Source: a bacterium (GTDB lineage: Bacteria > Bacteroidota > Ignavibacteria > UBA10030). Taken from it: 64,000 nucleotides of DNA. Shown here one piece after another: positions 4,364-40,800 of this stretch. Within the stretch, counting starts at the first letter, position 1; each line of letters begins with the position of its first letter. A program made the translations under genes and the position numbers. The stretch covers positions 32,001 through 96,000 of the forward strand of contig JAZDJN010000035.1 of the NCBI GenBank assembly GCA_043803945.1. Reading direction: 5' to 3'. The notes beneath the pieces were generated by a model. That model had not been told where the DNA came from. It made no database searches and worked only from the letters and a program-made list of their open reading frames with translations.

Positions 4364-4447
4364 CTCTGTATCCTCCTTCTTGGTGACATCCTCGTTAAAA
4401 TGAAAAATGTCCAACTTCTCTAATTTGAAATTGAACATTTGTCCTCA

Positions 4448-16180: not shown

Positions 16181-16202
16181 AATTCCCTCACAGTTTGAAT
16201 TG

Positions 16203-16661
16203 TTATTTAACAAAGCCGTTCTCTGCCGCCGACCAATACGATTCCTCAGTAACAATGAGACTATCCACCATCTTAATACCTACAAGCTCACCGACCTCAG
16301 AAAGCTTTTTCGTCATCTCAAGATCCTCTTTAGACGGTTGAATCGAACCACTTGGATGATTGTGTCCCAAAACAATAGAGCATGCACTACCTAATATCGC
16401 TGTCTTGAATACCTCCCTGGCATGAAACATCGTCCCTGTCAACACCCCGATCGAGACGGTGTGGATTCCATCTACCTTGTTCATGGCGTTGAGCAACAAC
16501 ATGACAAAGTGTTCACGATCGACAAGGCCGATATACTCCCTCATAAGTTTTGCAGCATCTTCAGGGTTTTGAATCGTATCAGTCGTTAGAAGAATATTCG
16601 TTTTCTCCTTCACAACCTTGACTCGATAATTCGCTAGCCTCGGATACGGTATCTTTTTCAT
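16203..16661 (-). CDS. JAB domain (RadC-like) protein
   Basis: REHF..LLL...REVFK.AI....S...HNHPSG...PS.ED...D. Confidence 0.9.
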   Translation of the reverse strand: MKKIPYPRLANYRVKVVKEKTNILLTTDTIQNPEDAAKLMREYIGLVDREHFVMLLLNAMNKVDGIHTVSIGVLTGTMFHAREVFKTAILGSACSIVLGHNHPSGSIQPSKEDLEMTKKLSEVGELVGIKMVDSLIVTEESYWSAAENGFVK

Positions 16662-17063: not shown

Positions 17064-17405
17064 CTATGCGAAATAGACAATCCATTCAGCTTTCTCGTTG
17101 TTATCATCAACCTCAATAGGCGATTGTCGATATTTCTCAGGAACTACGAATGGGAACAACTCAATAAGTTTCCTCACCCTTCGGATGTCCCATTGACGAA
17201 CAACTTCGCAAGCCTTGTCATACCATTCGTCACGCAGTTCTAAAGGATGCCTTCGAGCCTCTATCGCCGGCAGCATGCACAAGAAATCTGCATCCTGAAT
17301 AAACCCGTACGACTTGCGACCATTGATATTATCAATCACCTTCTGCTTTAATCTCTCATACTTGATTTCGTAGGGCATTATTCCTCCCCAAAGTTGAATA
17401 CACAT
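17064..17405 (-). CDS. Hypothetical phage protein
   Basis: Probable start MPYEIK overlapping ligase stop. Confidence 0.65.
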   Translation of the reverse strand: MCIQLWGGIMPYEIKYERLKQKVIDNINGRKSYGFIQDADFLCMLPAIEARRHPLELRDEWYDKACEVVRQWDIRRVRKLIELFPFVVPEKYRQSPIEVDDNNEKAEWIVYFA

Positions 17406-18298
17406 TCTTCCGGGTCTTTATCATCACGCCAATCTAAAAATACCGGATGCTGCAATGCCCCAGAATCATATTGGGGGCCAAACGTCTTAAATGACGCCAC
17501 TCTTCCAATGTGCTTTTCCATTTCGGCTTTCGGACCTGTGATGCCGGTCGAACCTACCACTCTCAGCTTTCCATTCTGGTCGTAGAGTCCGTACGACAAT
17601 CCTACGTATCCCAATTTCCACGACTCTGTGTGATCGCCATCAGGAAGAACCAAACCCGTCTGACTATCCACTCCACCAGGACGAACCCGCCATTCGCTTG
17701 GCTTGGAATCACAATCCGTGATTACAATATCAACTGGATCCCACGCTTTCACCTTTACCCATGCTGAACGACTTCCCGGCTCATACGGTCTCTCTAACCG
17801 CTTCAGCATAGCTCCCTCGCCACCTTTCTCAACAATATCGTCGTAGAAAGCTTTCTTGTTGACATACCGACGAACAGATGGGTAGATTCGACAATCCAAC
17901 AATCCCAAATCTTCCATGAACATTTCATCGAGTGATAACAGTCTTGACTTCAACGGAAATCGAGTGAAGTCGCTACTATCGTTGTATGCAAGCATGTCGA
18001 ATATCACGGCTTCGAGCTTTTCTGGGTCATTTGCCAACCAGTGATTCACTTCGCTATGTCCCTGCAGTAAATCCAAATCCCGGCGGACAATGATTTCCCC
18101 ATCGAGCTTCATGCCTGCAGGGAATCGTCCTTTTAAGAAAGAGACATCCTTCTCCTTCCCATTCCTGCTGAACTGACGATCTCCAACGATGAGAATACGG
18201 TGACCATTGAGCTTTTCATCGGCAACGATTTCCGGGGAATCCCACATCCAATCGTCTTTTCCTTCTTTGAACGAGCGTGCGAGCTGGGCTTCAATCAT
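17378..18298 (-). CDS. ATP-dependent DNA ligase
   Basis: Motif I EKLNG, III LDGEII, IIIa IFDML, IV EGAMLK, V WVKVK, VI HPVF...RDDK. Confidence 0.9.
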   Translation of the reverse strand: MIEAQLARSFKEGKDDWMWDSPEIVADEKLNGHRILIVGDRQFSRNGKEKDVSFLKGRFPAGMKLDGEIIVRRDLDLLQGHSEVNHWLANDPEKLEAVIFDMLAYNDSSDFTRFPLKSRLLSLDEMFMEDLGLLDCRIYPSVRRYVNKKAFYDDIVEKGGEGAMLKRLERPYEPGSRSAWVKVKAWDPVDIVITDCDSKPSEWRVRPGGVDSQTGLVLPDGDHTESWKLGYVGLSYGLYDQNGKLRVVGSTGITGPKAEMEKHIGRVASFKTFGPQYDSGALQHPVFLDWRDDKDPEECVFNFGEE

Positions 18299-18722: not shown

Positions 18723-19091
18723 TTATGCACAATGACCACACCAACCAGACTTTTCACCATGAAACAACAGCAGACGTTCCCGTCTCCGGAATGGCGCCTT
18801 GCTAATGTCTTTCTTGTATTCAAAACACTCTTCGAATATCTTCTTAAATTTTCCCGGCTTGCACCAACTCACTGTGATGCTCTCTACTTGTGTTCCATTC
18901 TTTCGATCTTCGTCAGGAATAATGACACCAAACTCCTGAGCACCATCTTCACTGAAGGAATCATTCAACAATAATAGGCCGTTGCACTCAAACCCTGTGC
19001 AGAGCGTCCACGACGTGCATCGGTAGAGATCAGCTACTAGCTCATCAAGTTCATCATACTTCTTGACTCTGTATACTCGCAGATTCGTCAT
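18723..19091 (-). CDS. Hypothetical phage/ICE protein
   Basis: WTLCTGF..LLLNDS..EDGAQE....Q.ESITVSW; ATGA overlap. Confidence 0.75.
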   Translation of the reverse strand: MTNLRVYRVKKYDELDELVADLYRCTSWTLCTGFECNGLLLLNDSFSEDGAQEFGVIIPDEDRKNGTQVESITVSWCKPGKFKKIFEECFEYKKDISKAPFRRRERLLLFHGEKSGWCGHCA

Positions 19092-20022
19092 GCGACCTCC
19101 AACATTAACTGATTCGATACAACCACCTTTGGCTTATATAACTCAACTGCCTCTATAAACTTTTGAACGATTTCAATCACCACAGCATGGCGTCCTTCTG
19201 CCAATGCAGCTCTGGCGACATTCAACGAACCGGCAAACAAATCCATCACGATATCACCAGGCATTGTACCGAAACGGACAAGCTCTCGATATAAGTCAAC
19301 AGGCTTCTCCGATTCGTGACGCCTCTTTGTCGGAAAAATCATCTGGTGTTCCAGAACATCCTTCACAGACTTGTCAAACGGCATAGCTCTCTTGCCCTTC
19401 GACATAAACAATATCGACTCATATCGTGGACGACCATTGTATCCCATCCCCATCTGTTTCTTATCCCACACGAACAGCTTGTTGAACTGGAAACCGACAG
19501 TCTCTGCCTCAGTTATCAATGCATCAATGTGAGGTTTTGTCTCACCGGTGAGACTCGGACAGAAAATGAAACAATGCGCCCCACCCCATACCGGCTGACC
19601 GTTCGTTCCTCTTGACTCCTTCTGAGACTTCAACACCCTGAACATTTCACGGAGTAAATCTTTGTCGATGTCCCTTGTCGGATACGACCAAGATCCAGAC
19701 TGTTTCCGTGTTGTGCCACGCTCAAGGTGATGATTCAACCACGTGTAGCCAGGGTTTGTGATAATCATATCAATGACCTCTGACTCAATTTCCTTTATCC
19801 TCTCCCATACATCACCGTGAAGGGCTATTGCGACCGCCTCTCCATGCTTGGCGACATAGACACCCCTGCAAACCCGAACAAAGAGCCTACCGTTGGCTTC
19901 GTTCAATCTGCCACGAATGGTGGAATCCTTGTCTCAGGACGAACGGCTATCACTTCTGCATAGATATCTGGCAGCTTCGTCGGTTGCTTGAGGATCCTCT
20001 GCAGCAACGATGTGAGTGTCAT
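19088..20022 (-). pseudogene. Beta-class N4-C/N6-A DNA methyltransferase with N-terminal winged-helix-like domain, frameshifted at ~19929
   Basis: ITNPGY (motif IV), H..EKP, DLFAGS (motif I); ATG 20022 overlaps the upstream stop and joins the 19088..19906 frame if one A is restored. Confidence 0.75.
19539..19554. promoter_or_regulatory. Dispersed perfect palindrome GTCTCACCGGTGAGAC (parS-like)
   Basis: Identical to array copy 5007-5022. Confidence 0.7.
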
Positions 20023-24536: not shown

Positions 24537-25078
24537 GTATATTAAACACGACAATCTCAGTAATAACATAATATTATTATGATACTAAGATTCGATTAGG
24601 AACAATGATGAAGACGTGTCTGGTATGTTGGATGGTAAAAAGGGAGATAATCTTTTATAGACGATTGTGAAACGAATATTGTCTCTGGTATTGACGTGAA
24701 TAACCCGATAATTTCTCCAGTTGCTCAAAATAAACTGAAATAACGATATAGAGTTACACGGTGATACACTTTGATTACACATATTGAGCAATTGAAAAGA
24801 TGGGGAGAATGATCAAAGCCCGGTAAAGTGTTTGGAACCAGCCCGAACCGTGTAGTCCTTCGATCCCATAATAAATGATGTTCGATCGGTGGTCAGTGCT
24901 GTTTTCGGTTAATGATGTCAAAGAACCTTATAGTCATCGCTGCTCTGCAAGGATGAGAGGAATATACTATTCTCTTGACTATGACCTTTTATAAAGTGTT
25001 AAGCGCAGCGCAGTTGCTTTGCGGTGATTTCAACCTGGCCAGCATCAACCTTGGGGGCGGCGCTGGCGAAAACCCCCA

Positions 25079-25486
25079 TCACTTGTTGTAATGGAAGACA
25101 ATGCTTCGCCTGCCCATCTCTATGAAATACAAGTGCATCTCTTCAGTGAGATCATCGTCAATATCTATGACTGCCCGATTTCTCGACGGATCGCCCGTCC
25201 AAGACTTGGCAAGCCTATAAGGTTCAGAGATGCCGATGGGAACTGCCATTCGAAGTTTGCCCGCTCTCCAGTCAAAGCCGAAAACAAATCGTCCAGCCCC
25301 ACGGCGAATGATCTTCGTTGAGTAGGCACCGAAGTAACCTTGGTCGCTATGCCCTTGGAAATACAAGTCACTATGGTTCTTCGAACGAGCGTACTCAGTC
25401 GTTTCTCGAACCAAGCGTTCAAGGAACTTCCTCTCAACCTCTGTTGGAGAAACAGCATCTAGTGGGATTTCGTCCTTTTCAATCAT
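25079..25486 (-). CDS. Hypothetical protein, possibly a DUF5655/YjbR-like fold
   Basis: Y.GAY....RFVFGF resembles YIAYY....RVVFGF in the C-terminal half of the neighbour. Confidence 0.6.
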   Translation of the reverse strand: MIEKDEIPLDAVSPTEVERKFLERLVRETTEYARSKNHSDLYFQGHSDQGYFGAYSTKIIRRGAGRFVFGFDWRAGKLRMAVPIGISEPYRLAKSWTGDPSRNRAVIDIDDDLTEEMHLYFIEMGRRSIVFHYNK

Positions 25487-25508
25487 CTGAGGCTCCGTCC
25501 AATGCAGA

Positions 25509-26492
25509 TCAGTTCAGGCCAAAGTTCCTGAGTGCCAAAGCATCCTTTGACAAGGCGTCAATGTGCAACGTTTGGAGTTCTGGAACCTTGGCGTAATTAT
25601 AGCAAAGCTGCGCCATTTCCTTGAAAAGCGCCAAAGCTTGAGAGACGTTACTATCATCGCCAGCGCACTTCTCGTCAATTCTTACTGGAAAAATCTGATT
25701 TTTCCTTGGGGGATCCATATGTAAACCGAGAGAGCTTAGCTTTCTTGTTGCAGGATGAGATCTAAATGTTGCGTGGTCTATTTCGTACACGCTGAACTCA
25801 ACGTCAAAGGTTGAGCGAGTGGGTCCCGTATTGAAACCGAAGACAACACGAGTGGTATCAGTGCCATAATATGCAATGTAGCTGTGCTCATGCTTCGATC
25901 GAGGATTGATAGTTGGAGATACCGAAAGATAGGTCTCGTTCAGACGTTCAGCGAACTTGCGAAGACTGGGTAGAGAAGAAGCGACAAACTGTGCTGGCAG
26001 AACTTCTTTGAAGGCCGGGCGATTATCGAATAGACTTGCAAGGCTTACGGAGCTTGACAGTATTCTCCTGTCAATAATTTTGAAGACCTCATCGTTGTGA
26101 AGTGCGAATTGTGCCCACACAATTGTCGATCCTCGATCTGCGGCAGAATTTGGCGGTGGCTCAGGACTCAGAACCATGCCTACGATTCCTTGTCTATAGT
26201 TGAACCGAAATCCGTCGAGATGCCGGAAAGCGTTGAGTTCCTCAAAGAGATTCGGGTACTTCTTGGATATGAGCGCTATGTACTCTTGAAGTTGGTCTAC
26301 GACTTGGGGATCCTTTTTAACCTTGAGTTCAAGAACTATCGGGATGGAAGTGGCAAGATCAAATCCAAGTATGTCGGTTCGCTTTCCGACGTGTTGAGCG
26401 ACCACCTTGGGAACCTCTGAATTTACATGATGCAGCCCAAGCGTCTGCATATTTGATGAGACGAAACTATTGAGAATCTTCTCCTTGATCAT
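25509..26492 (-). CDS. PD-(D/E)XK endonuclease (NucS/EndoMS-like N-domain) with C-terminal sensor-like domain
   Basis: E...RTDILGFD....IVLELK.......DQLQEY. Confidence 0.75.
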   Translation of the reverse strand: MIKEKILNSFVSSNMQTLGLHHVNSEVPKVVAQHVGKRTDILGFDLATSIPIVLELKVKKDPQVVDQLQEYIALISKKYPNLFEELNAFRHLDGFRFNYRQGIVGMVLSPEPPPNSAADRGSTIVWAQFALHNDEVFKIIDRRILSSSVSLASLFDNRPAFKEVLPAQFVASSLPSLRKFAERLNETYLSVSPTINPRSKHEHSYIAYYGTDTTRVVFGFNTGPTRSTFDVEFSVYEIDHATFRSHPATRKLSSLGLHMDPPRKNQIFPVRIDEKCAGDDSNVSQALALFKEMAQLCYNYAKVPELQTLHIDALSKDALALRNFGLN

Positions 26493-26535
26493 TGATGACC
26501 TCTATTTTTTAAAATAGATAATGAAAAACAATTCA

Positions 26536-27678
26536 CTACTTATCCAATATTCTGTCGTACTCCAATATTTCTTTTGACAATAAATCGGAGGTCTTAACAT
26601 TCTCCAGATGGGCAAGATCATTTCTCATTTCTCTTAAAACAAAAACCAGCTTTTTCAACTCACGATCAACGTATGTTTTAGACCTTTGAAGAGCGTAGGT
26701 TATTTGCCCAATTTCCATATCTCTGATATCAGATGTGAGTTTTCCCTCCTCTGTCTGGAAGGGCATCATAATACCAAGCTTGTTACCAATTATCATCCTT
26801 CTTCGGCATTCTTCAATAAAAGGAAATAAAACGCCTACCTGAGCACTCCAAATCCTGCGTTCGAGTTCTTCAATCGGACCCTGCAATGCAAAAACTGCAG
26901 AGTGGCAGACATCCTTCCCCTGCCACAAATAAGTCTTTCCCTTAGACCAGTTGTTGTCTGAATAAACAGCGTTTCCGGGTAGCCAGTTACGCTCTTTTGC
27001 ATATTGCTCCAGAAGGGACCTCGGATTTAGAATTTCCCCGATAGCTCTTGAAGCAAGATAGTCTGCCAGATTTGGATCCCACATTGCAATGCTGTCAATG
27101 ATGTTGGTTGCGATACTTCGGTGCACGTCTGACGGAAATGTGCTTTCAACTTTCATGTGAACATATATCAGCATATCAAGCGAATTGACGCAATCATTCC
27201 ATTTAAAAACATCAAGGCATGCATCTTTCTCAGGAATTACATTTGCTGATTCTCCGATTACACAAGCACAGATCATAGACCGCCGCATTAGACTTGTTGC
27301 TTTGCATGCTTGTTGAAATAAAGAAAGGAATCCAGCCCATTTCTCCCAGGTATGAAAATCATTGAATTCAATCCAAATAATTTTTCCCTGGAAAGATTCC
27401 TGGCTCAGGATGTCTGATGCGCTTACGATCTTATAATGAAGATCTTTTTCCAAGTAGGATTCACACAGAAATTTTAATGGGTCACTTTCATCAAATGGCG
27501 GTCGTATCTGTTGAAAAGTCCAATCCGAATCCCTGAACCTGGCGCTCAATGCGAATCCAAGGTTAGGAGGATGGAGTTCAGGAAACAGAATTACCACATT
27601 ACGACCCTGTCGAATGCTTTGTTCGATGTCAGCCGTAAATTTTGCAGGTCCGGGGAGCAACCACCACATCAAATTCAT
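26536..27678 (-). CDS. Hypothetical protein, possible inactive P-loop/STAND-like partner
   Basis: 17 bp downstream of the giant NTPase; QSIRQGRNVVILFP resembles a degenerate P-loop; ends in RNDLAH. Confidence 0.75.
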   Translation of the reverse strand: MNLMWWLLPGPAKFTADIEQSIRQGRNVVILFPELHPPNLGFALSARFRDSDWTFQQIRPPFDESDPLKFLCESYLEKDLHYKIVSASDILSQESFQGKIIWIEFNDFHTWEKWAGFLSLFQQACKATSLMRRSMICACVIGESANVIPEKDACLDVFKWNDCVNSLDMLIYVHMKVESTFPSDVHRSIATNIIDSIAMWDPNLADYLASRAIGEILNPRSLLEQYAKERNWLPGNAVYSDNNWSKGKTYLWQGKDVCHSAVFALQGPIEELERRIWSAQVGVLFPFIEECRRRMIIGNKLGIMMPFQTEEGKLTSDIRDMEIGQITYALQRSKTYVDRELKKLVFVLREMRNDLAHLENVKTSDLLSKEILEYDRILDK

Positions 27679-27695
27679 CTTGTTCTGTTCCTGCG

Positions 27696-30600
27696 CTACT
27701 TTCCAAACACATTATGTGTGAGAATACTATTCAATGAATATGTGTTCGGACCAACAAGTGAAATCATGTCTAGTGCTTCCGCCCATTCAATACTCTTTGG
27801 AAGAAATTCTTTTGCTTCTCCCAGATCCAAAAGTTGCTCCAACTCAGTTATGGCGATGTTTTCCCCACCATATTCTGCCATAGTGCTTATGATTCCCCTT
27901 GGAGTTTCAGTGATCTCTGAAAAGCCAAACATTTTATCAAGTTCCATTCTGTTAGCAGAAATCCATTCCTTCAATTTCCCACAGCACTCTTTCGAAACGA
28001 AAGTCTCCCCTTTTGTTAACTCTTGGAACTTCTTAAGTAGAGCATAAAGTTGACCTGTAATCGATTTTATCTCATTTCGTTCTTCTATTTGAAGAGCGTA
28101 GACTTCGTCATCAAGCCAATGTTTAATCGCCGATTCATTCCACCTTCTCAATGATATAACATCAAGGCTTGCTCCCCTCAGTTCGATCCACTGACTCCAC
28201 TCCTGATTAAGAATTCCCCAGAGGTGATCCGGCTCTGCTATAAACACAAAACGCAGAAAGGAGCCCCAGTTCCCAATTATGCGGATCTTCTCCTGGGCAA
28301 TTTTTATCCACTCCAGGCTCCATGGAATTTCATAGCCGATAACATAGATAGCGACACTATCTCTCGCAATTGACTTTATTTCATCAATGAATTTTCTGAA
28401 TTGAGCAACTGATTGAACTTGATCAATCATATTCACATTTGAAAAAACCCGTCCTTTAAGAAATTCGGGGAGATCATCCAGTCCATTAGCTCTGTTACCG
28501 GCAATAAGGGTTACTCCATCTTTGTTCGAAGTGATCGTGCTCAATTGGCCAACAGTCAATGGACTTCTGAACTCTCTCGCACCGGCAGGCTTGAACGCAA
28601 TACGAAAATGCGCTGGTTCATATCCTAGTTCTACTTCGCGTCGCTCTAGCAGCTTTGACGTAATTTTCTCTTCACTTCCCATCAGTCTGTAAACGTTTTG
28701 GTTTCTCAGTAGATACCCTTCAGCAGGTGTGGCTTGCAATACACCCAGACCGATCATTTCCTCTACCAGAATTTTGATTGACTCGAGCGAAGAATGTTCC
28801 TTGAATCCTTCAGGATAGAAACAAGTTGCCTGTTGCCTGATCCAATCCAGGGTGAATCCCGAGCTCATACCTAGCTCAGGATTATCCGCATACCCCTGGG
28901 CTATACTATATGCAATAACTTCATACTTGTTGTCAAGTTGAAGGGTCCAAATGAACCTGTCACTGATTTGATTTCGCAGACTGGTATTCTGAAAGGCGTC
29001 TGTGACATGTCTGCTTTCTATGATATATGGTGGACACTTTTTAGTATCGAATGGAATCTTCCTGATGTGCTGCAGCAACTGTGTGCAATATAGTTGAATA
29101 AGGCTGGGATAATAATTTGTCTGAGATAATATCCTCATTATGAGATCACTGCTACTGAACTTGTAACCAATCGCTCTCAGAGGGATTTCTACTAACTTTC
29201 TCGCTTCTATCCATTCATCATTTGAGAATAGGGGTCCGATGCAGTGAGGTTCCCCAAAGTGTGCCAGTGGATGGTTAGCCAGCGTTGTTGTTCTCAAGAC
29301 ATTGTGAAGCCCGGCGAAAACCACCTTGAATCTTCTGCTGGTATTATCCATTAGGCCCTTTAATCGCGAGGTGTAGATGAATTCTCCGGATGATTTTCCG
29401 GACTCCCGGCTTCCTTTGCCATCGATTTCCAGAAAAATGTCTGCTTCATCAAGCAGAAGTAAAATCCTCCTGTCGGTACGATCATTTAGCCATTCTTGTA
29501 TATTTTCTAGCAGGTTTTTTAATCCTGTGTTTCTTTGTACTTTTGTTGAAATGACCTGGTATTTCTTAAATTCTTCCACCAGTACTTCCCACAAATGGTC
29601 TATCGGCTGAGCCGTACCAATACCGAGGACTTTGAGATCAACATAGAGGGCAATCATACCACTTGAAGGATTGTGGAAAGTTCTCTCGATCGAGCGCAAT
29701 AGAGCTGTTTTTCCGAGCTGACGACCCCCATAGATAAAACACGATCCATGAGGATTTACGATCGCTTCGAGTTCCCTTTTTCGCCCATAGAAGATCTCAG
29801 GCGGAACAAGGCCTGCAGTTGTGGTATATGGCTCAAGATCGGTTAAAGGCAGAGTACAATCGAAGAACACTGGAAGCCTGTCACCTTTCACTGTACACAA
29901 ATAAAGAATTACTATATCATCGATGACAATATACGTTCTTCTCCCTGACCGGCTCTCCTCCGCAAGTTCCCTTCTGCGTAGTTCAGACATTCTTCCAAAC
30001 CAAAATATTATAACAGGGCCCCCGCTTCCTGCAGTTGCGACATCATTAGAGAGAATATCTGCTGTTTGGTAATTCCAGAAACAAAGAACACGGTATCTTC
30101 CATTTGCTGCAGACCCATACTGATAAGCGGGGCAACGGTTTCGGTCATTAACTGCTTCGGCCTCAGCAGCGAAGATATCCTTATTGACAACCCTCCGTTT
30201 TTCGACATTTGCAATATTTAGTCCAATCCCTTTCAGCACGTCAGACACATGGTCAACAGTTGCGAAACGGGAATTCTTCATTTCGAGCCACGCTTCAAGG
30301 AGGTTGCGTGCATCTTTTCTTTGACTCGAGGACACTCCTTCAAAGGATAATGGCCCAATATTTTCACCCCGCTCAACCAACCTAAGAAGCTTATTTCCAT
30401 TCAGTGCATCCTTTTCCAGGAATCCGTGCAGTTCGGCAATCATGGATAACATGGTTTCAAAATGAGTTTGACTGGCTTTTTCATCCGGGATAGCCTCTCC
30501 GTTTGCTGCCCTGTTTACAAAATCTTCTGCAGTAATAAGGTCACCATCTTGTAGTAATTTACTGATACGAGAAAAGCCATCACTATCAGACTTAATACCG

Positions 30601-33600
30601 ATGTCACTCATCCTTTTAATGAGACGTTCTCTTGCCTTATTTTTTTGTGTGTCGATCGTGCTTTCAATTCCATCGAGCTGTTGTATGGCTTCGGACAAAT
30701 CTTCTTTATGCTTTGAAGCTTCCGCAATAGAGTGAATATCGCGTTTGAACGAATCGTATTGATCTCCGCGGATAATATTTAATGCCATCGCATCTTCAAT
30801 TTTTGCGACGGTTCTTGTCCTTACAATTTCTTGTATAAGCATCCGGGACTTGGTGATTTCTTCATCTCGTTTTCTTCGAAGCCCTTCAGAATCAACACCC
30901 TGAATATGGAGGAATTCGACGGCATCTATCACATTACCGGAAATTGTGTGTGCATGGTCTCTTGTAGCTTGCTCGAAGGCTCTCACCCAGTCTTCTGTTC
31001 CTTCTTTTATAAGTTGCAAGAGTTTTATCAGAATCCCTTTATCATATCCCTGAACAGGTTCCCAATCAGCATTGAGAGGTAACCCTGCCAGAAGTAATTC
31101 CCCATTAAGAATCCATCGGATATAGGGCTCTTCTGGGATAAAAGGCTTGGAAGGATCGAATATTGACTTAATGTCCTCGATTGCGGAGATGGTAAGGTCA
31201 ACAGCAGATCTGGTAATTCTGGAATCAGATCCATGCTTAAACTTGGATAGTTCATCAATGCAGGGAGTACACAGATCACCCAATTCACGCTTTAATTTGT
31301 CAATTTTTTCATCAATAAATCCCCGTTGTTTCCCTGGTCTGAAATCGATAAGCCCCACCCATATTCTCGCCATTGTCGATAGATCTCTGAGATGTCTTTG
31401 GATTTGATTTGAAGCTCTCTGCACTATTGATCCACTGGAATGCACCATCGTGATGGCAGCAAAATGAGTATCGATTTCCCGCCCCAGCCATCGCTCATTT
31501 ACTAAGTCAATCGAAAAATCTTTCACAATATCAAGATGATCAAAAGCATTGTTTTCAATCGCTTCAACTATTTGATAAACTCTGTTACCTCTCTGCAACA
31601 TTCGTTTCCATGTCTTTACTCCGGGAGAGGTCACTATACCGAAACTTTGAGCTTGCTTATACCATTGCTTGACTTTGTTCCTGATATCTTCAAGTTCTTC
31701 ACGCCACTTTGTTTGATCTTTTGCGATTTTTATTACTTGTGGTTCAAGCGCAATTCCCAGGTAACCCCATTCAGCTATCCTCTGTGAAATGGTATGCAAT
31801 ATGCTTAATTGGCTGTACGATAGTTGGCTTAGAATCGCCTGAGCTCCTGTAACTGGTGCCAGCAGAGATGGGCGCAGACATGAACTTCCCCACATCAGGT
31901 TCAACGCTATTCGTGTCTTGTCGTCTTCAGCTTCAGGAAGATCTGGATTGAAATTTTCATATTCTTGCTTAAGTAATGAGGCGATATTTCCCTGGTTTGA
32001 TCCTGTATAAGGGGCAAGCAGAATCGCTTTGAAGAGAGAGGCTGATAAGGCACTGGAATTAGTTGGGAGAATCATCGCACATTGATATGCAATCCTGAAT
32101 TTTCCCTCTCCCACAAGTGCCCAGAGTAATTCGTCCAACAAACTATCTTCCGCTGCTGTGTGGTTCGGAGAGAGCATTTGTTCAGCGATTAAGGCAGAGC
32201 TTCGGTTATCGGCTCTTTTAACTTTTAATGCCTCAACGGGTTCCGGAGATTCCTGTGCCCTTATTTCCGACTTCTTTGAAGGCTTCGATTTAATTTCAGG
32301 TACGGGTGTCTTATCAGGAGCCCGATCCTCAATCGCCTGGACCTGATCTTCAATAACATTATTGGTGATCTCTCTCGGAATCTGTACAACTGTTACCGCG
32401 TCTTCTGTTTTTCTTTGATGAGAAAAGTCTCGGATCGCCGGGAGTTCAGGAAATACTATTTGATCTGGTCCTTGTTCAGCAATGACCATTCTATCCATCA
32501 TAGCAACTTCAGCGCATTCTTCTCCAAACTCTTTAGCAATCACTATTTTGAGTGCTTTACACTCATGGAATCCCAGGATTTTCTTCTCTTTGACAAGACG
32601 TATGAGACTTAAGTATGGATGCGATCCATCTACAATGCTGTTCACAATCACTTGTAAGTTGCTTGTATTTCCACTTTTAATTTCTGCCTCAAGTGTCACG
32701 ATTTTTTTCACGACCTCTTTCAGAGGTGCAAATTCAATATCAACAGTGTTTCGCAGCAAATGAAATGTTGAGAGCAATTTAAGCGCGTCAAGTCTGGTTT
32801 TCTCAAACTCAACTTCCGCCATCCTGTTTTTCCCACGTTCAAACAATAGGGCCAGATCGGCTGGAGTTTTTGCTGACAGGATCCTTTCTTTTATTTCATC
32901 ATCTACTGATGCTGAGATATCTTGCTTAATTTCCTCAAACAGTTTCAAATAACCGGATGCTAATTCCTGTAAAGCTTTAATTTCATCAGCGCTTGCTTCA
33001 CCAGCAGGCAGGGCATTTGAAATATTTATTAAATTCTTCTTTGCCAGATCTATCTTTTCCTCTACCGACTGAGCTTGTTGTGACTCCTTTTTATCATCGC
33101 CATCTTTGCCTGCTTTGTCATTAGTCAACCTGATCGGGCCCTCTTCAGCAATACTCTCCCGATCATCACCTGCTATTTCGGTAATCCCCTCTTGTTCATA
33201 ATTTACACCTTCTCCCCCGCCTTTATCATTAAACCAGCCTAAAAGAAGTGACATTAACGTGACTTCTGATTCGTCTTCCCCTTCGATAGGTTTTCCGCCT
33301 GGCCTGAAGTGCCACAATTCAGTCTCTCCCTCCTGGCATAGATCAGTATCGTTAAGAGACTTCCAAACAATCGGAGAAATTACCTTCCGAACTGAATACC
33401 CCCTTTCTTTCAGGGCTGCCTCAACTTTCAATCTTAGATTTTTCTTCACCTCCATCCACAAAGCGAGAATCCAGTTACCAAGCTGAGCATCCTCAACTAC
33501 CCTTTGTTCCATAAATTGAATTACTCTCAGCTTTGGCACCTTTCGGGCATGTGAGAATCCCGGGAAGTACCGGGAGATCCTGTCCTTATGGAGAGCCAAT

Positions 33601-33713
33601 GTCTGTGCTTGATCATATTCTACAACTGCTTTGATAATTTGGCGCAGTTTTGTCCGCGGATAAGATTCGAGAGGATTAAAGAGGTTGTCGGGGTACTGGT
33701 TATGACTTGCCAT
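27696..33713 (-). CDS. 2005-aa STAND-like P-loop NTPase with long helical N-terminal region
   Basis: PY...FYGRKREL, Walker A YGGRQLGKT, Walker B LLLLDEAD, YYPSLIQ; second degenerate P-loop LIAGNRANG. Confidence 0.85.
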   Translation of the reverse strand: MASHNQYPDNLFNPLESYPRTKLRQIIKAVVEYDQAQTLALHKDRISRYFPGFSHARKVPKLRVIQFMEQRVVEDAQLGNWILALWMEVKKNLRLKVEAALKERGYSVRKVISPIVWKSLNDTDLCQEGETELWHFRPGGKPIEGEDESEVTLMSLLLGWFNDKGGGEGVNYEQEGITEIAGDDRESIAEEGPIRLTNDKAGKDGDDKKESQQAQSVEEKIDLAKKNLINISNALPAGEASADEIKALQELASGYLKLFEEIKQDISASVDDEIKERILSAKTPADLALLFERGKNRMAEVEFEKTRLDALKLLSTFHLLRNTVDIEFAPLKEVVKKIVTLEAEIKSGNTSNLQVIVNSIVDGSHPYLSLIRLVKEKKILGFHECKALKIVIAKEFGEECAEVAMMDRMVIAEQGPDQIVFPELPAIRDFSHQRKTEDAVTVVQIPREITNNVIEDQVQAIEDRAPDKTPVPEIKSKPSKKSEIRAQESPEPVEALKVKRADNRSSALIAEQMLSPNHTAAEDSLLDELLWALVGEGKFRIAYQCAMILPTNSSALSASLFKAILLAPYTGSNQGNIASLLKQEYENFNPDLPEAEDDKTRIALNLMWGSSCLRPSLLAPVTGAQAILSQLSYSQLSILHTISQRIAEWGYLGIALEPQVIKIAKDQTKWREELEDIRNKVKQWYKQAQSFGIVTSPGVKTWKRMLQRGNRVYQIVEAIENNAFDHLDIVKDFSIDLVNERWLGREIDTHFAAITMVHSSGSIVQRASNQIQRHLRDLSTMARIWVGLIDFRPGKQRGFIDEKIDKLKRELGDLCTPCIDELSKFKHGSDSRITRSAVDLTISAIEDIKSIFDPSKPFIPEEPYIRWILNGELLLAGLPLNADWEPVQGYDKGILIKLLQLIKEGTEDWVRAFEQATRDHAHTISGNVIDAVEFLHIQGVDSEGLRRKRDEEITKSRMLIQEIVRTRTVAKIEDAMALNIIRGDQYDSFKRDIHSIAEASKHKEDLSEAIQQLDGIESTIDTQKNKARERLIKRMSDIGIKSDSDGFSRISKLLQDGDLITAEDFVNRAANGEAIPDEKASQTHFETMLSMIAELHGFLEKDALNGNKLLRLVERGENIGPLSFEGVSSSQRKDARNLLEAWLEMKNSRFATVDHVSDVLKGIGLNIANVEKRRVVNKDIFAAEAEAVNDRNRCPAYQYGSAANGRYRVLCFWNYQTADILSNDVATAGSGGPVIIFWFGRMSELRRRELAEESRSGRRTYIVIDDIVILYLCTVKGDRLPVFFDCTLPLTDLEPYTTTAGLVPPEIFYGRKRELEAIVNPHGSCFIYGGRQLGKTALLRSIERTFHNPSSGMIALYVDLKVLGIGTAQPIDHLWEVLVEEFKKYQVISTKVQRNTGLKNLLENIQEWLNDRTDRRILLLLDEADIFLEIDGKGSRESGKSSGEFIYTSRLKGLMDNTSRRFKVVFAGLHNVLRTTTLANHPLAHFGEPHCIGPLFSNDEWIEARKLVEIPLRAIGYKFSSSDLIMRILSQTNYYPSLIQLYCTQLLQHIRKIPFDTKKCPPYIIESRHVTDAFQNTSLRNQISDRFIWTLQLDNKYEVIAYSIAQGYADNPELGMSSGFTLDWIRQQATCFYPEGFKEHSSLESIKILVEEMIGLGVLQATPAEGYLLRNQNVYRLMGSEEKITSKLLERREVELGYEPAHFRIAFKPAGAREFRSPLTVGQLSTITSNKDGVTLIAGNRANGLDDLPEFLKGRVFSNVNMIDQVQSVAQFRKFIDEIKSIARDSVAIYVIGYEIPWSLEWIKIAQEKIRIIGNWGSFLRFVFIAEPDHLWGILNQEWSQWIELRGASLDVISLRRWNESAIKHWLDDEVYALQIEERNEIKSITGQLYALLKKFQELTKGETFVSKECCGKLKEWISANRMELDKMFGFSEITETPRGIISTMAEYGGENIAITELEQLLDLGEAKEFLPKSIEWAEALDMISLVGPNTYSLNSILTHNVFGK

Positions 33714-34171
33714 ATAGCTTGAACTCCCATAAATGAAAGAAAGACGTGATATCTTTCTTTCGCTAATGTGACCTTATCTTAATCGCGTTATAATGATCTT
33801 GCAAAAAAAAAAAGAACTGATGAAAGGTTTTACCTTTATCTGTCGAATACCGGTTACTCTAACAAGCTTATCCCTGACAACTGCAATAATGAAATATGGA
33901 TATTGCCTATTTGTAAAGAAAAATACTTCGCTTATTGGCTCAAAAACAAAAAAACCTCCTTCATCGCATTCGCGAATCCAAAGGTTTCAATTTCTCTTTC
34001 TTGGAAGATATAAGGAGCGCCACGGTTTACTCCTTCGGAAGCACACTTAATCCTCCTCCACGGAATGCCCCAGCACGGTAATTAAGATTTGACTGTTGGC
34101 AAGAAGGTATAGATGTTTGCTAATGAAAACAATAGCAAGAATGTGCAATTGGCGATAATGAGCTAAATTTA

Positions 34172-34538: not shown

Positions 34539-34859
34539 TTAGCTAACCTTGAGCTTCATTTCCAATGTTTTACGCCGGCCTTCATTGCTCTCTATGGACA
34601 CTGACACCGTGTAGGTAGTGTTCGCAGTTCCACCGGAACAAAACACCTTTACCACTGTCTCGGTGAATACCATATCTGCAGTTGTCAATGATGCAGCTGG
34701 AGCAACAGTCACCTGTACACTCTTAATCTCGTCTTCTCCATTGTTACCAGGACGCAACACCGTAAAGAAGTCGAAATCGTAATCAAGTCTGTCTGCTACC
34801 TTTTGTTCAAATAATTTTACTGTCTGAGGCATATGCTTCTCCCTAGTTTTCTTGTTCAA
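34539..34859 (-). CDS. Phage fibre adaptor-like Ig-fold protein
   Basis: QK.ADRLDYDFDF...VKVFCSGG....Y.V...I....GR pattern; follows the giant fibre gene. Confidence 0.7.
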   Translation of the reverse strand: MNKKTREKHMPQTVKLFEQKVADRLDYDFDFFTVLRPGNNGEDEIKSVQVTVAPAASLTTADMVFTETVVKVFCSGGTANTTYTVSVSIESNEGRRKTLEMKLKVS

Positions 34860-37800
34860 TTATGCACGGATCTTCTTTTACTTTTCTTCTCTCTACTGGA
34901 ACATCTGGTCTGCGACGCTCCAGATCATTAACCTTGTTTCTATCCCACTTGGCAACCACCCTCCTCACCGGTCCGCAATAGTCGGTCAGCCTGTCTTTGA
35001 AAGGATATTCAATACTCCTGACAACCACTTCTGGAGATGGCGCTATCTCTGGAATCGCAAACACATCCCTAGTGCCACACGACTTGATGGTCCTTCCTCT
35101 CGACAGCTTTATAGCACGAACTTTCTTGAATAACTGCAGCTCAGATATCGACTCACAATCTGAACGCAAACCAAGAACTCTAATGCATCCAACACCGAGA
35201 ATGCTTTCGGATTCCGATACCGCCGAAGCACTTATGCCCTTGTTGACATACACAGACGTTGTGGATTCAGATTCGGAATCGCTACTCATCATCATTCCGG
35301 CAAGTTTGCCTAAGCTCAAAGTAGCATTGGCAATGATGGATGATGATACAACCATCTCCTTCAACCTGTCAAACAACGAATGTGCTTCTGCAACGGCAGA
35401 TGCAGAACAAGTCATGCTGATAGCGACCTGCGGACTGAGAACTGCCGAACATACTGCTTGAGACGTAATTCCAAGATCGGATCTCTTCACTAATCGTGCA
35501 GTTGCTTCACACAATATGCTAACTCGAGTACTTATCGGGACAATGATGCTTGCCAATCCACGTGCGAACATCTTGCCAGACCCAAGCTCAACCTTTCGGA
35601 TTGAGCACGCTGCAGAACCAGACGAAATAACAGTTCCGCGAACGCTGGTTGCTAATCGGAATTTCAGATATGCAGCACCACCACTGAGAACATCACCAAC
35701 GGTATCCAGGACTGTCTTAAACGCAACAAGCCCTGACCCACCAGAGACAATTCCACCCTGAGCGATCAATGTTCGAATGAACGTGAATAGTGCAGAACCG
35801 GATACTACACATCCGCCGAGAGCTGCCACAGTCAGCCAGTTGCTAATCGACGATGCACCAGACAACAATGCACCACCGCCGACCTCGATTACTCTGCGAT
35901 TCTTCATCGTCACTGAACCGACCGCGATCATCGAGCCGGAAGTCTCGGGCTCAACTGAAACAGATTTCGTTGCATTACCACTGGCCGCAATTCCACCAGA
36001 GCAAATCAATGCCGAGCTAATGACTCGCTCTGCAGTACCGCTGGCGACGATTCCTCCGATACTCTGACCACTCAGCCGCACCAAGACCAATGCACTTCCA
36101 GCAGTGATAACACCGCCAGTAACATGTGGAGCTATCCGCTTGCCTATCGCTGCAGAGCCACCAGATACAATATCTCCAGAGACATCGACGATACGCTTGA
36201 ACTGAACTCCAGCACTACCACTGATTACTATACCACCATAACTCTCGAGTGATCGAGTTGCCACTAAACTCGAACCACCACCTGTCTTTGATTTACCACT
36301 TCCCTCTAGAGCGATGGCCACAACGATACTACCCTGACCGCTGGGTACTACTCCGCCAATACCTTTAACCACCCTGCGGATTATCGGTTCATAGATACAC
36401 GCACCACCAGTTAAGATATCTCCAGACCCAACGACTTCTATAATATTCTTCACTACAGCTTTGCCAGATGCTACAGCTCCACCTGTAGCGATTACCGCCT
36501 TTACGAATGCGACAACGGCTTCGGACAACAACACAATAATTCCATCAATAAACTGAATTTTCGAAATTGATACCGAAGCAGATCCAGACGATTGCACACC
36601 ACCGATCGGTTGATATTCCAAACCTAAGCATAGCGTACTCGAGCCGCCAGTGAGCAAGCCACCTGATGATACGATCGCTTTTCTGAAACAAACAACTGCA
36701 CCACCGCGAATCGTGCAACCGCCTAATCCATAGATCCTGCCAGCCATCTGACATTTGCCGCCAGTGACCACCCCACCCTTTGTGGCAAACGCACGACCAT
36801 TTACCGATCGACCCGAAGTGATTACTCCATCACTGACAGCGAACGTCCGGGCAAGAATTACTAATCCACCAGCGACGATCGTGCCTTGACCTTCAATGAT
36901 TCTGCCAACTGCAAATTCTGCAATACCACCGACAATCAATCCGCCAGCCGATTCAAACACATATCCGCGACAGAGTAACGCACTGCCACCGAGTATCATA
37001 CCGCCACTTGGTTCAAATTCTAACCGGATATGATGAACAACACCTGCAGCTCTACCCGTCGTAACACCACCGCTGGAAACGATCGACAACACCTTAGCCA
37101 CCGAACACGAACCGGATGCAACTACTCCACCGTTGCCACTTACTACCAGCACGATAGCCCGTAGACACTGACCGCCAGTAGCCAATCCACCAGACACCAC
37201 AAATGTCCGACCGAACTCAGTGTGACCACCAATCGATATTCCACCACTAACGGTGATCTCTAGCCGATATGCGACATCTGCAGTTCCACCACAAATTAGG
37301 ATCCTACCCAGTTTCCCATAGCCAGACGTTCCCCAGGAAGAGCTACCGTAGCCACCGACATTGTTACTGACATCAAGCGCAACGTAGGTAAAGCGGATCG
37401 ATTTATCGGCTACTCCACCTGCCGATTCTCCACCACTACCATCAACAACAACTCGGACTGTGACACTGCCAGAGGCGCTTGCAGTTACTCCACCCGCACA
37501 CAAGCCAACGAAGATGCGAACAATCGCACCACCACCGGTTGAAACGCCACCGCCAAGGCATATATGCGTAAAGCCACGCACTACGCTTCCACCGGTGATA
37601 ACTGAGCCGTTTGCAGTCACTACGATAACGATAGAACTCAGTGAGGACCCAGACGCTAACAAACCGCCAGTAGCAACAAAAACGTATCCACGACACAATA
37701 TCGACGTCTCACCGGTGAGACACCCGCCTATGCCAGCAATCGATAATACCTTCGCGATACTTGCTACACCACCTGTAACTGTACCATCTGAAGCAAACCT

Positions 37801-40800
37801 CGATACACCAAGAGAACAAACTCCAGAAGTTACCAGTCCTCCGGTTGCTGATACTGCAATAATATTTGCTATCTTGGCATTAGCGGAACAATTTGCTCCA
37901 CCGATCGCTGCAACATTCAAGGTCACGCAGTACGGAGAAATACCACTTGTGAAAATTTCCCCACTCGAAGGAACAGCTTTCACATTAGAGACTAATGCAC
38001 TGCCAGGCGATGTTACTCCTCCGGACCCGCTTACTGCTTTCACGAAGCTGTTTATCGAAGACCCCGCTGACGATGCACCGCCTATTCCTATATAACCACG
38101 AACCATTGACCCACTACCACCGGTAACCATTCCACCCGAAGCGTATTTCAATACACCGAGAGCGCATGCTCCACCAGCAGAACACCCACAGACACCATCA
38201 ACAGACATTACAATAGAAACGGTCGCGACTCCAGACGTAATCGCACCGCCCAATGCATATTTCAATACACCAAGCGCACACGAACCACTCGCGATGCTTC
38301 CACCGGACACTACGGGTACGAACACCTTTGAAATTACTGCGCCACCACCGGTAATACATCCACCTGAAGTAACTGGAAGTATAACAATCGCATAGGAATT
38401 AAATCCACCTGTTACTGCCCCGCCGCTAACGAATACTGTCCTTCCAAGTGCAACTACACCGCTTGAAATACATCCAACAGAAGAAACTGGAACAATGACA
38501 TTTGAGCAAGAACCATTTCCACCTGTTGTCACTCCACCACTGACAAATACCGTTCTTCCAAGCGAGACATTACTACTGGCGACACATCCACCTGAGGTAA
38601 CAGGAAAAATGACAATAGCAAGAGAACCGCCTCCACCAATTGTCAATCCACCCAAACCACTTATCGCTTTCACAAAGCAGTATATCGGTAAACCACCTGC
38701 CGATACACCACCGGTTCCTACATAGCCAAATCCAGCCTGAGCTTGACCGCCAGTGACTACACCACCTGAGATAACGAACACCCGGCCATTTACGGATACT
38801 CCACCTGTTACAGCACCGCCAGAGCTTTGAGGCGCAAACCGTAAGATGAAATCAGCGGATCCTCCAAGAACAATAACACCGGTCGCACGCCCATGCCCAA
38901 ACGAACCAAATCCAAAGCTACCCCACTCTCCAGCAATGTCCGATCGAATATATGGCTCCCACACCAACCCTCTTGATAGCAGATGAACGCCACCGAATAC
39001 AATCCCACCGGATGCAACAACGTCTAATCTGACCCGCAATACAACGTCGGCAGTGCCACCGCTTATTGCACCACTAGTTCCAACATAACCGCGAACCATT
39101 AAAGCACTGCCATCAGAGACGATTCCACCTGATGCAAATTTCAGAACACCAAGCGAACAAACTCCAGAGGTAACAACTATACCTGAAACGCTCGGAACAA
39201 ATATCCTCGCTATTATTGCAGTGCCACCTGTGCTGCATCCGCCAGCACACAAACCTACATATATCCTTACGATCGAAGCGCCACTCGCAGTTACACCGCC
39301 GCCAGTGACGGCAAACTCCCGACCGAAAGGTGATACACCACCAGCCAGGCATCCAGATGAACTTGGCATTAATACGACAAATGAAACTTGACTGCTTCCC
39401 GAATAAACAATTCCACCAGATCCACTATAGCCACGCACAAATGCCGCTGTACCGGAAGTAACGCAACCACCAGAACCAACGATCGACAACACTTTACTTA
39501 CCGTCGCACTTCCAAACGTGTCGCATTGACCCGATGGGATAATGACGAGAACTATTGCGCAGGGCCCACTACCTGAAGCAACGCATCCACCCGTTGCTGT
39601 GATAGCAACCACATTGGAGCTTACTGCTGACCCTGATGTTACGAGTCCACCAGTAATTTCAAACTGTCTTCCTAGTTGCGCCAATCCGCTTGTGACACAC
39701 CCACCTGTGGCGAACTTCAAGATGCCAAGCGCACTCGAACCACCAGTAGAACAGCCTCCTGCACCGTCAACGGTCTCTATTATAGACACCGCCGCTACAC
39801 CAGATGTAGTAACTCCACCTAATGCATATTTCAAAACTCCAAGAGAGCATGCTCCACCAGTTAGACATCCACCAGATACTACAGGTGCAAACACCTTTGA
39901 TGTTATTGCACTACCACCTGAGACATAGCCACCTGAAGGAACTGGAACGATGACATTTACGGGAGAACCAATTCCACCCGAAATAATTCCACCGCTAATG
40001 AATACCGTTCTACCAAGCGCAACACTACCACCAGAAATATTTCCACCGGAAGCAGCTGGCACAAATATTTTTGCCACCAATACCGAGCCTGCAGTAACAA
40101 CACCGCCAGACGCGAACTTGAGAACACCGAGCGCACAAACACCGCTGGAGACAACTCCACCATCTGCAGATGGAACAATTACGATCGAGCAAACCGAAGA
40201 TCCACTACTGGACATTCCATCGGAGCCAACTTCACATCTTATTTTACTAATGTCTGTTGCGCCACCGGTAATACCGCCACCACTGCAAACAAATGTACGA
40301 GCAATATCTGCCCGGCCGCTAGAGACTATTCCACCTGATACTGCCAGCTCAAATCCACGTATTGCGGAACCAGAAAGCGTGACTCCACCAGTAGGTAATA
40401 CATTGATACCTACAGTCACAACTGCACTACTACCGAGAACAGGAACTTTGTGAACCCGTCCTTGTCCACCTGAACCAAATCCGAACGAACCCCACATTCC
40501 ATACAGATCAGACGTGGAATACGACTCATAGACCAAGCCTCTTACAAGTCCAACACTACCACCAGTAATACATCCCCCACCGGCTACGTGCGACATGGTT
40601 ATCGTCGCTGCAACTGGAGCAGAACCGCCAGTCGTAATACCGCCGGAACACAGCCCGACGAATACTCTGATCAACGCTCCACCACTGGCAGTGATACTAC
40701 CGCCAGCGCAAATGAACGTCCGTCCAAAGTCTGCATGCCCAACAGTTACACATCCACCCTGGGAGACAATTACTATCACCGATGCACAAGTCGCTGAACC

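Follow-up and report, generated by a model that had tools for sequence, protein, structure and literature searches.

The window analysed here is a stretch of 64,000 nucleotides covering positions 32001-96000 of contig JAZDJN010000035.1 (C35), which measures 122,323 bp in an assembly of 5.5 Mb and 118 contigs. On its minus strand four open reading frames (ORFs) follow one another in the same orientation, encoding a giant protein with a predicted STAND NTPase (P0001), a shorter protein that we call its partner (P0002), a NucS-like protein of the PD-(D/E)XK type (P0003) and a small protein (P0004). An earlier note on this DNA had pointed to these four tightly packed genes, with gaps of 17, 43 and 22 bp, and the ORF listing of the window agrees. 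The note could not assign the layout to Avs, Druantia, BREX, DISARM or Dpd, and PADLOC 2.0 gives no match for it either: the Druantia, BREX, DISARM and Dpd models match none of the four proteins, and all four stay below the curated thresholds of Pfam, NCBIfam, PHROGs and PADLOC 2.0, with zero matches in PHROGs. It had left two options, an undescribed defence system or two adjacent two-gene modules, and it is the second that holds. The four are real genes, and the cluster consists of two independent two-gene cassettes lying side by side: cassette A, made of the giant and its partner, and cassette B, made of P0003 and P0004. A single four-gene system is seen in none of 16 loci, and the second pair occurs alone in others (L024/L025 and L021).

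The linkage within cassette A was followed from both of its ends. Scanning the partner alignment against 185,579 species genomes yielded the 16 loci, and tblastn with the four window proteins placed a giant homologue next to the partner in 15 of them; the exception, L015, holds only a partner-like piece within a frame of 679 aa. The giant lies directly upstream, its ORF ending a few bases from the partner start, often with overlapping stop and start, and it measures 1720-2074 aa where complete. In the converse test, a profile built on the C-terminal end of the giant had matches in 7 of the 301 genomes searched from another class, and the partner stands directly downstream in all five of the new full-length loci selected in this way (L047-L051; in L051 the match is weaker, E 1e-17, and cut by the end of the locus). 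Shorter giant paralogues in those genomes come without a partner. Conservation of the gene neighbourhood is thus clear for the giant and its partner (15/16 and 5/5), but it does not extend to the four genes together: tblastn finds P0003 and P0004 in 0/16 giant/partner loci, and both are absent from the plasmid giant/partner loci checked.

Cassette B, for its part, travels alone. Homologues of P0003 and P0004 are consecutive in the metagenome contigs L024 and L025 (89% / 91% identity), in unrelated surroundings, and a genome of the same family (L021) carries the pair at 49% and 54% identity; neither the giant nor the partner is found in any of the three. The DNA shared with L024/L025 starts 13 bp ahead of where P0003 begins, inside the 43-bp gap, and this boundary, together with the separate occurrence of the pairs, indicates two cassettes and not one system. 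The closest partner homologue found is 50% identical, against 72-89% for relatives of P0003, so the two pairs have different histories. All this bears on the alternative that the four genes form one defence system, in which the HEPN RNase and the PD-(D/E)XK DNase would act together with a STAND sensor and a small regulator. Its appeal lies in the co-orientation, the short gaps and the lack of a terminator-like site in them, and defence systems with paired RNase and DNase effectors are known. However, P0003 and P0004 accompany none of the giant/partner loci examined, plasmid ones included, their closest copies (89%, 91%) are found elsewhere without giant or partner, the DNA similarity stops 13 bp before P0003, and the unequal identities of the nearest relatives point to separate pasts, so that we regard a conserved four-gene system as very improbable and largely refuted. 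As to transcription, a motif scan found no terminator-like site between the four genes, with counts at chance level over the scan (promoter-like sites 26 versus 20.1±4.4 expected; terminator-like sites 5 versus 8.5±3.3 expected) and a consensus that is probably the wrong one for this host. With no such site in the gaps, the four genes may be co-transcribed here.

The architecture of the giant was derived from an alignment of 13 homologues and from structure prediction (Table 1); dense conservation marks its C-terminal 850 aa. Its N-terminal region is variable, and the conserved region that follows, marked by four invariant tryptophans, gave a profile that retrieved no relative from the PDB; for the whole giant, the partner, P0003 and alignment A4, too, searches of the PDB by sequence and profile returned nothing significant. 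Ahead of the NTPase lies an alpha/beta domain with the order alpha-beta-beta-beta-alpha-beta-alpha-beta (residues 1-145 of the AlphaFold2 model) and with G1200, A1203, G1205, Y1207, R1208, R1247 and D1265 invariant; searches with the whole model were dominated by the ATPase, and no fold match for this domain emerged. For the NTPase itself, the intact Walker A and B described in the earlier note are invariant in 13/13 aligned homologues, and among the 150 best representatives of the family (clusters at 50% identity) Walker A is kept in 149 and Walker B, under a strict pattern, in 133. Two further elements do not vary among the homologues, an RFKVVFAGLHNV strand and a TNYYPSLIQ motif.

The AlphaFold2 model of residues 1150-2005 has a pLDDT (predicted local distance difference test) of 84.6. 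Its best structural counterparts are the archaeal Walker ATPases of the ATPase_2 family (PF01637), PABY2304 (2qen) and SSO1545 (2fna), with 317-323 residues aligned: in VIA, residues 1294-1680 (145-531 of the model) match 2qen with Z 20.4 over 323 aligned residues and 2fna with Z 18.8, and Foldseek returns 2qen at E 1.6e-7. Plant NLRs follow at Z of about 16, and Orc/Cdc6, TnsC and MuB at Z 13-15. The fold matches give a nucleotide-binding domain, then a helical domain, then a winged helix. The archaeal proteins differ from the giant in that they are stand-alone ATPases of about 350 aa, and identity is only 13%. In Pfam the matches at residues 1308-1470 are all below threshold (AAA_22 25.5 with a cut-off of 27, ATPase_2 20.7 with 33.2, AAA_16 19 with 32.6), and some relatives of the giant do exceed the AAA_22 cut-off. 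Judging from the model, residues 1300-1700 are an intact STAND NTPase of the ATPase_2/ORC type.

The earlier note had also seen an apparently dead second P-loop, and the model indeed contains a second beta-alpha-beta module at about 1700-2005 that lacks GK[ST] and an acidic Walker B, with only Q1723, G1739, W1798 and F1824 invariant. Double-ring AAA proteins (Cdc48, NSF, ClpC, Pex1/6) align over both modules, with a high root-mean-square deviation. The family to which the giant belongs is large: an exhaustive profile search retrieved 6132 representatives at E<=1e-3, 4228 at E<=1e-10 and 2555 at E<=1e-30, and 116 of the 150 best are at least 1700 aa long (median 1878.5). A Pfam scan of 23 representatives gave AAA_22, AAA_16, ATPase_2 or AAA only, with two lacking any match and one exception, P0045 (2451 aa), in which sigma-70 regions 1.2, 2, 3 and 4 occupy residues 235-495, before the conserved body of the giant; this is either a true fusion or a merged gene call.

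The partner was predicted with high quality (pLDDT 92.2). Over residues 1-267 VIA aligns it with the TIR-NLR WRR4A (Z 11.4), 2qen (11.2), the STAND protein 6mfv (11.1), CED-4 (10.9) and Avs5 (10.2-10.4), and Foldseek returns NB-ARC, RFC and ORC chains. The position of Walker A reads LPxxxPxGL, with P33 and P37 invariant and no GK[ST], so to go by the model the N-terminal part is a STAND fold with eroded Walker motifs, as the earlier description of a degenerate P-loop protein had suggested. An hhalign comparison of partner and giant finds no relation, and the dead modules of the two proteins are therefore not detectably paralogous by sequence. The C-terminal RNDLAH, which the note had likened to the RxxxxH of HEPN domains, closes helix 339-356 of the model; R352 and H357 (RNxLAH) are invariant in 23/23 partner homologues, and the residue after the arginine is N, D or H. 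Upstream, the consensus FPFxEExRR contains a nearly invariant E289 and an invariant R292. HEPN RNases are characterised by an Rx4-6H motif that closes helix 3 and has a polar residue next to its arginine, and by an upstream acidic Ex3[KR], according to the part of the survey available to us (Anantharaman et al., 2013, PMC3710099), and the partner has both the Rx4-6H and an upstream acidic motif like Ex3[KR]. HEPN_Swt1 of Pfam matches 3 of 23 members below threshold (best E 0.019), and the Atlas places the protein near a 'Swt1-like HEPN' cluster (0.93), with structure rows for Abi_2 (TM 0.58), DUF4145 (0.50) and RiboL-PSP-HEPN (0.48). Residues 263-380 are thus a probable Swt1/Abi2-like HEPN domain.

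Cassette A is distributed widely and very unevenly. The 16 partner loci come from Cyanobacteria, Acidobacteriota (several of them Bryobacterales), Smithella, Cytophagia, Chitinophaga, Parabeggiatoa and Zavarzinella, so that Cyanobacteria, Acidobacteriota, Desulfobacterota, Bacteroidota, Gammaproteobacteria and Planctomycetota are represented, at least six phyla, as well as plasmids. Of 401 genomes sampled from the phylum of the window, one has the giant, and of 301 from another class, seven do. A word search for the partner returned 8 proteins, and word-indexed searches of this kind badly under-report family size compared with exhaustive profile search. Among plasmids (PLSDB), tblastn with the partner found 13 records. 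On pSR118 of Salinibacter ruber the pair is formed by a 1927-aa 'ATP-binding protein' and a 377-aa hypothetical protein, with a transposase and a DUF3320 protein encoded alongside. A plasmid of Azospirillum ramasamyi (L059, 1778-10659) encodes a giant homologue of 2403 aa, annotated 'RNaseH domain-containing' by NCBI, and a partner of 557 aa in which the dead STAND and an RRGMAH motif are kept and a C-terminal P-loop kinase-like domain is added. On a plasmid of Bradyrhizobium sp. 186 (L060, 7857-10635) a frame of about 380-386 aa corresponds to the dead module of the giant alone and is followed by a partner homologue of 544 aa, which also adds a C-terminal P-loop kinase-like domain; that the dead module alone precedes this partner is a hint that the two belong together. 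Within the 10-kb flanks of the loci, defence genes are frequent neighbours (Table 1). Membership in Druantia, suggested by L004 and L006, was considered and rejected: it concerns only 2/16 loci, and L004 holds a complete, separate Dru set.

Several described systems share parts of this design. Avs proteins unite in one polypeptide an N-terminal effector and a C-terminal sensor of tetratricopeptide repeats (TPRs). Cassette A resembles them in joining a STAND NTPase switch to a nuclease effector, and the folds match (Z 10.2-10.4 between the partner and Avs5, 10.6 between the giant and Avs3); in cassette A, however, the predicted effector belongs to a separate protein, where it is joined to a dead STAND, and the long unassigned region forms the N-terminal part of the giant, and for giant and partner PADLOC 2.0, Avs models included, gave no match of any kind at E<=1. 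BREX combines BrxC, an active ATPase of the ORC/Cdc6 type, with BrxB, a separately encoded inactive STAND, as described in the accessible part of PMC12839542. The same pairing of an active ATPase and a separate inactive STAND is found here, and BrxC chains are among the fold matches (Z 9.2-11.2), but the cluster has no PglZ, PglX or BrxA/L genes and no PADLOC Brx match, and it does have a probable HEPN effector.

The closest described concept is nSTAND2, a mobile two-gene operon predicted computationally by Kaur, Iyer, Burroughs and Aravind (2021, eLife, PMC8195603), in which both products have STAND cores. To judge from the part of that article available to us, the first gene codes for a large '??+STAND+wHTH' protein and the second, downstream, for a STAND with eroded NTP-binding motifs, fused mostly to HEPN or GT4, the whole being predicted to act as a hetero-multimeric counter-invader system. 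The operon layout of cassette A, in which the gene of a large STAND protein comes first and that of an inactive STAND joined to a probable HEPN domain second, agrees with this description, so that the earlier suggestion of an undescribed system has to be tempered. There are differences. The nSTAND2 partners in that text either have TPRs ahead of the HEPN and measure 486-640 aa or carry GT4 and measure about 750 aa, and the entries are almost all from Proteobacteria, with one STAND+wHTH protein from Calditrichaeota; the partner in cassette A has 380 aa and lacks TPRs, a second, dead module is present in cis in the giant, and the hosts belong to at least six other phyla. The conserved motifs printed there are also unlike those of our partner, in a comparison made by eye only. 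Neither tblastn against PLSDB plasmids, with the window partner or its Azospirillum homologue, nor the partner-family search reached any of the nSTAND2 taxa named in that part of the article. We set cassette A beside nSTAND2 by description, as a possible member. In the literature covered, which leaves out most subscription journals, we found no experimental follow-up of nSTAND2 or of anti-phage operons of inactive STAND and HEPN.

Taken together, cassette A would be a STAND-based conflict system with a probable HEPN effector, from a large family that is named in none of the libraries searched. Our preferred reading, which we hold with moderate confidence, is that it works as a two-protein, NTP-gated RNase system of abortive infection, that cassette B is a separate nuclease, and that both are phage-borne; they would probably be weapons against rival viruses. 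In such a mechanism the N-terminal region of the giant (variable in 1-450, conserved in 450-1150) would sense a cue from the invader, and its intact STAND NTPase would bind or hydrolyse NTP and switch conformation. The dead AAA-like module in cis and the dead STAND of the partner in trans would then co-assemble with it into a hetero-oligomer, bringing together the HEPN domains of the partner, whose Rx4H sites would cut RNA; translation would stop and the infection would abort. We infer each of these steps, from trigger and assembly to RNase activity and the anti-phage role, from the established behaviour of STAND/NLR proteins and HEPN RNases. A complex prediction with residues 1300-2005 of the giant and 1-262 of the partner scored 0.21 against a mark of 0.32, which says nothing either way.

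The roles of the two proteins could also be distributed differently, with the HEPN domain of the partner as an RNA-binding sensor or adaptor and the effector in the giant, in its alpha/beta domain or its N-terminal region. The alpha/beta domain is strongly conserved (G1200, Y1207, R1208, R1247 and D1265 among its invariant residues) and stands where nucleases are found in Avs proteins, and it is the Azospirillum giant that bears the RNase H annotation. Inactive STAND modules have moreover been proposed as nucleic-acid receptors, as the accessible text of Kaur et al. puts it (PMC8195603). Yet the full catalytic HEPN signature is invariant in 23/23 partners, and an invariant arginine, a polar residue, three further positions and a histidine, preceded by an acidic residue, argue for catalysis by the features listed in the part of PMC3710099 available to us. 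The alpha/beta domain, in turn, shows no motif of the PD-(D/E)XK type in the alignment, and we find this arrangement quite unlikely.

The mobile and patchy distribution invites another interpretation of cassette A, as a selfish addiction or stabilisation module similar to toxin-antitoxin pairs, or as an NTPase complex with a regulatory role in mobile elements; the HEPN RNase would be a toxin that the giant controls. The pair occurs on plasmids, in the vicinity of transposases and on a phage-like contig, its distribution is very patchy and many loci have no recognised defence neighbour, and one representative has the N-terminal sigma-70 fusion. Known antitoxins, though, are far smaller than a controller of 2000 aa that has a conserved active NTPase. 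The fold, besides, is nearest to immune STAND/NLR and ORC-type switches, and at two loci Druantia or Azaca genes adjoin the pair directly. Addiction and immunity are compatible roles; as a replacement for immunity, we judge addiction unlikely.

Returning to an NTP-gated RNase carried by a phage, several points weigh against it. In IMG/VR no contig matches the partner or P0003 profiles, and no GenBank phage record matches the C-terminal part of the giant by tblastn; since cassette A appears in no phage record, phage carriage would be unusual for the system. No validated defence family matches cassette A, and PADLOC 2.0 returns zero for giant, partner and P0004. About 9/16 loci have only housekeeping or uncharacterised neighbours, and the defence count, obtained with Pfam on 135 neighbouring proteins and PADLOC on 13 hand-picked ones, is a lower bound that is subject to selection bias and comes without a background rate; with PADLOC applied to those 13 only, such counts are indicative. 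The HEPN call is a probable one, made from sub-threshold Pfam matches, look-alikes by language model and structure, and the motif, and the sensor role that we infer for residues 1-1150 of the giant is purely conjectural. It is also conceivable that the alpha/beta domain (1150-1300) is an effector in its own right, and the possible co-transcription of the four genes may leave room for a local functional coupling of the cassettes.

A broader proposal, which we advance tentatively and with less than even confidence, is that cassette A represents a widespread and unnamed NLR-like anti-phage system, in which a giant with an active and a dead STAND in cis recruits a dead-STAND-HEPN protein into a hetero-oligomeric RNase 'resistosome'. 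Its parts would be swappable: in the partner HEPN would occur by itself or be joined by a P-loop kinase-like domain, the giant could have an RNase H-annotated extension or a sigma-70 part, and the dead module could be separate. Should cassette A protect against phages, a large family would be added to immunity of the STAND/NLR type, with at least 2555 clusters in many phyla, on plasmids and on one phage. It would then be a tractable case for how dead ATPase modules, in cis and in trans, aid the assembly of immune complexes and for how a HEPN RNase stays off until needed, and would give a first experimental handle on the operons of active STAND plus inactive STAND-effector that were predicted in 2021.

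For cassette B, the NucS-like motif read earlier in P0003 is well supported, with D40 and E55-x-K57 invariant in 10/10 homologues. P0003 has 16 relatives, many at 72-89% identity. In ten members of the family the Pfam matches are all below threshold (NucS_C in 6/10, best E 0.0069; HSDR_N_2 in 2, YhcG_C in 2, PDDEXK_4 in 1), and the protein of the window itself has no Pfam match at E<=1. NCBIfam NucS matches it at residues 39-79 with E 0.024 (13.7 bits, cut-off 216), PADLOC PDC-S18 weakly at residues 3-77 (5.5e-5), and its Atlas neighbours are NucS_C clusters (0.92-0.93). These comparisons support a NucS-like PD-(D/E)XK nuclease domain in the first ~130 residues. P0003 thus shares the D..ExK motif with NucS/EndoMS nucleases and PDC-S18, but the matches to these stay below cut-off and cover only the first ~80 residues, and neither its C-terminal 200 residues nor P0004 has relatives of known function. 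DUF5655 was considered for the C-terminal domain and set aside: it appears in Atlas clusters only, with a share of 18-42%, and in none of the Pfam scans. Nor could we uphold the idea that P0004 resembles this domain (BLASTP E 0.024; hhalign E 0.06, probability 0.9%). Distant homologues of P0003 (37-40%) have no detectable P0004. Neighbours of cassette B elsewhere include a caspase/PDC-S65 protein with type I restriction-modification (L024/L025), AbiGi (L022) and DUF2779 with an integrase (L030). We read cassette B as a separate predicted DNA nuclease with a small companion, moving as its own 1.5-kb unit, in which P0004 may be a regulator or an antitoxin. Two pieces of L033, a metagenome contig with an integrase, are also related to the window (L033 coordinates 5947-6000 and 7716-7940): a truncated N-terminal fragment of P0003, at 83% nucleotide identity, and a 54-nt stretch 83% identical to intergenic DNA upstream of the giant (window 33938-33989).

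Table 1. Features of the two cassettes, of the loci with cassette A homologues and of the surrounding contig (window coordinates unless stated otherwise)
Feature	Position	Strand	Basis or remark
Cassette A gene 1: giant STAND NTPase (predicted), P0001, 2005 aa	27696..33713	-	ORF listing
Giant, variable N-terminal region, E/K/L-rich, residues 1-450	32364..33713	-	no conservation; 145-440 aa in homologues; no Pfam match
Giant, conserved region, candidate sensor, residues 450-1150	30264..32366	-	invariant W670, W684, W702, W1142
Giant, conserved alpha/beta domain before NTPase, residues 1150-1300	29814..30266	-	AlphaFold2 model, alignment
Giant, predicted active STAND/ORC-type NTPase with helical and winged-helix domains, residues 1300-1700	28614..29816	-	
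Walker A GGRQLGKT, residues 1329-1336	29706-29729	-	
Walker B LLLLDEAD, residues 1418-1425	29439-29462	-	
Giant, second, motif-dead AAA/STAND-like module and C-terminal winged helix, residues 1700-2005	27699..28616	-	
Cassette A gene 2: partner, P0002, 380 aa	26536..27678	-	ORF listing
Partner, predicted inactive STAND module without P-loop, residues 1-262	26893..27678	-	VIA, Foldseek, alignment
Partner, probable HEPN domain, helical, residues 263-380	26539..26892	-	
RNDLAH motif, R352-N-D-L-A-H357	26608-26625	-	
Cassette B gene 1: NucS-like PD-(D/E)XK protein, P0003, 327 aa	25509..26492	-	ORF listing
Cassette B gene 2: small protein, P0004, 135 aa	25079..25486	-	ORF listing
Cassette B as discrete shared DNA unit	25008..26505	-	blastn, 1498 bp, 90% identity to L024/L025, flanks unrelated
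Locus L004 (Smithella metagenome-assembled genome)	L004 11235-20043		Druantia DruF/DruL/DruE directly after pair, same strand
Locus L010 (Bryobacterales metagenome-assembled genome)	L010 5561-11678		Azaca ZacA/B/C and methylase directly after pair
Locus L007			PIN gene between giant and partner; HEC-01A/B nearby
Locus L016			GmrSD
Locus L013			RAMP protein
Locus L006			DruK-like PD-(D/E)XK protein
Loci L009, L011			transposases
GajA (OLD-TOPRIM ATPase), complete Gabija pair	7443-9095	+	PADLOC E 2e-201
GajB (short UvrD-type helicase), complete Gabija pair	9088-10221	+	PADLOC E 5e-131
Pol-beta-like thumb/palm protein	3830-4438	-	
RadC and DUF6573	15797-16661	-	
ATP-dependent DNA ligase	17378-18298	-	
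N6/N4 DNA methylase	19088-19906	-	
Terminase large subunit	right end of window		
Baseplate wedge, tape measure, tail sheath, neck, portal/head-morphogenesis genes	contig C35 11-27 kb		
ParB-like nuclease, helicase, resolvase, endolysin, DnaC-like loader, sliding clamp	contig C35 96-122 kb		

The contig on which both cassettes lie is phage-like throughout, with almost every gene on the same strand (Table 1). No terminal overlap was found on C35, which may be a prophage or a co-binned phage; from its gene content it reads as a large myovirus-like phage or prophage with both cassettes in its accessory region. The first ~7 kb of C35 hold plus-strand genes, an esterase among them, and may be host flank. 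The complete Gabija pair lies about 15 kb from the four-gene cluster on the same phage-like contig, and together with a mobile nuclease cassette and cassette A it would make this element a further example of phage-carried defence islands.

Some other features of the window deserve mention. An ORF of 4423 aa (34843-48114, minus strand) is composed of 20% Gly, 14% Val and 13% Ser, with GG-rich units repeated at a period of about 38 residues and a GC content of 0.50 compared with about 0.43 in its flanks; it stands directly before a tail-fibre-like gene (48395-50341), has no match in PHROGs and is possibly a giant beta-solenoid fibre protein. The window also contains an insertion sequence (IS). 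A frame of 77 aa (53671-53901, minus strand) matches the C-terminal part of DrmD, the DISARM helicase, at E 4e-9 and adjoins an IS-type transposase (54125-55195, plus strand; helix-turn-helix plus rve_3), and it may be what is left of a helicase gene that the IS interrupted. At the left end of the window, an ATPase of the SMC/AAA_23 type (443 aa, 960-2291, minus strand) has an N-terminus weakly similar to LmuB, AriA and GajA (best E 3.4e-12, over ~80 residues), and may be part of another defence-type module.

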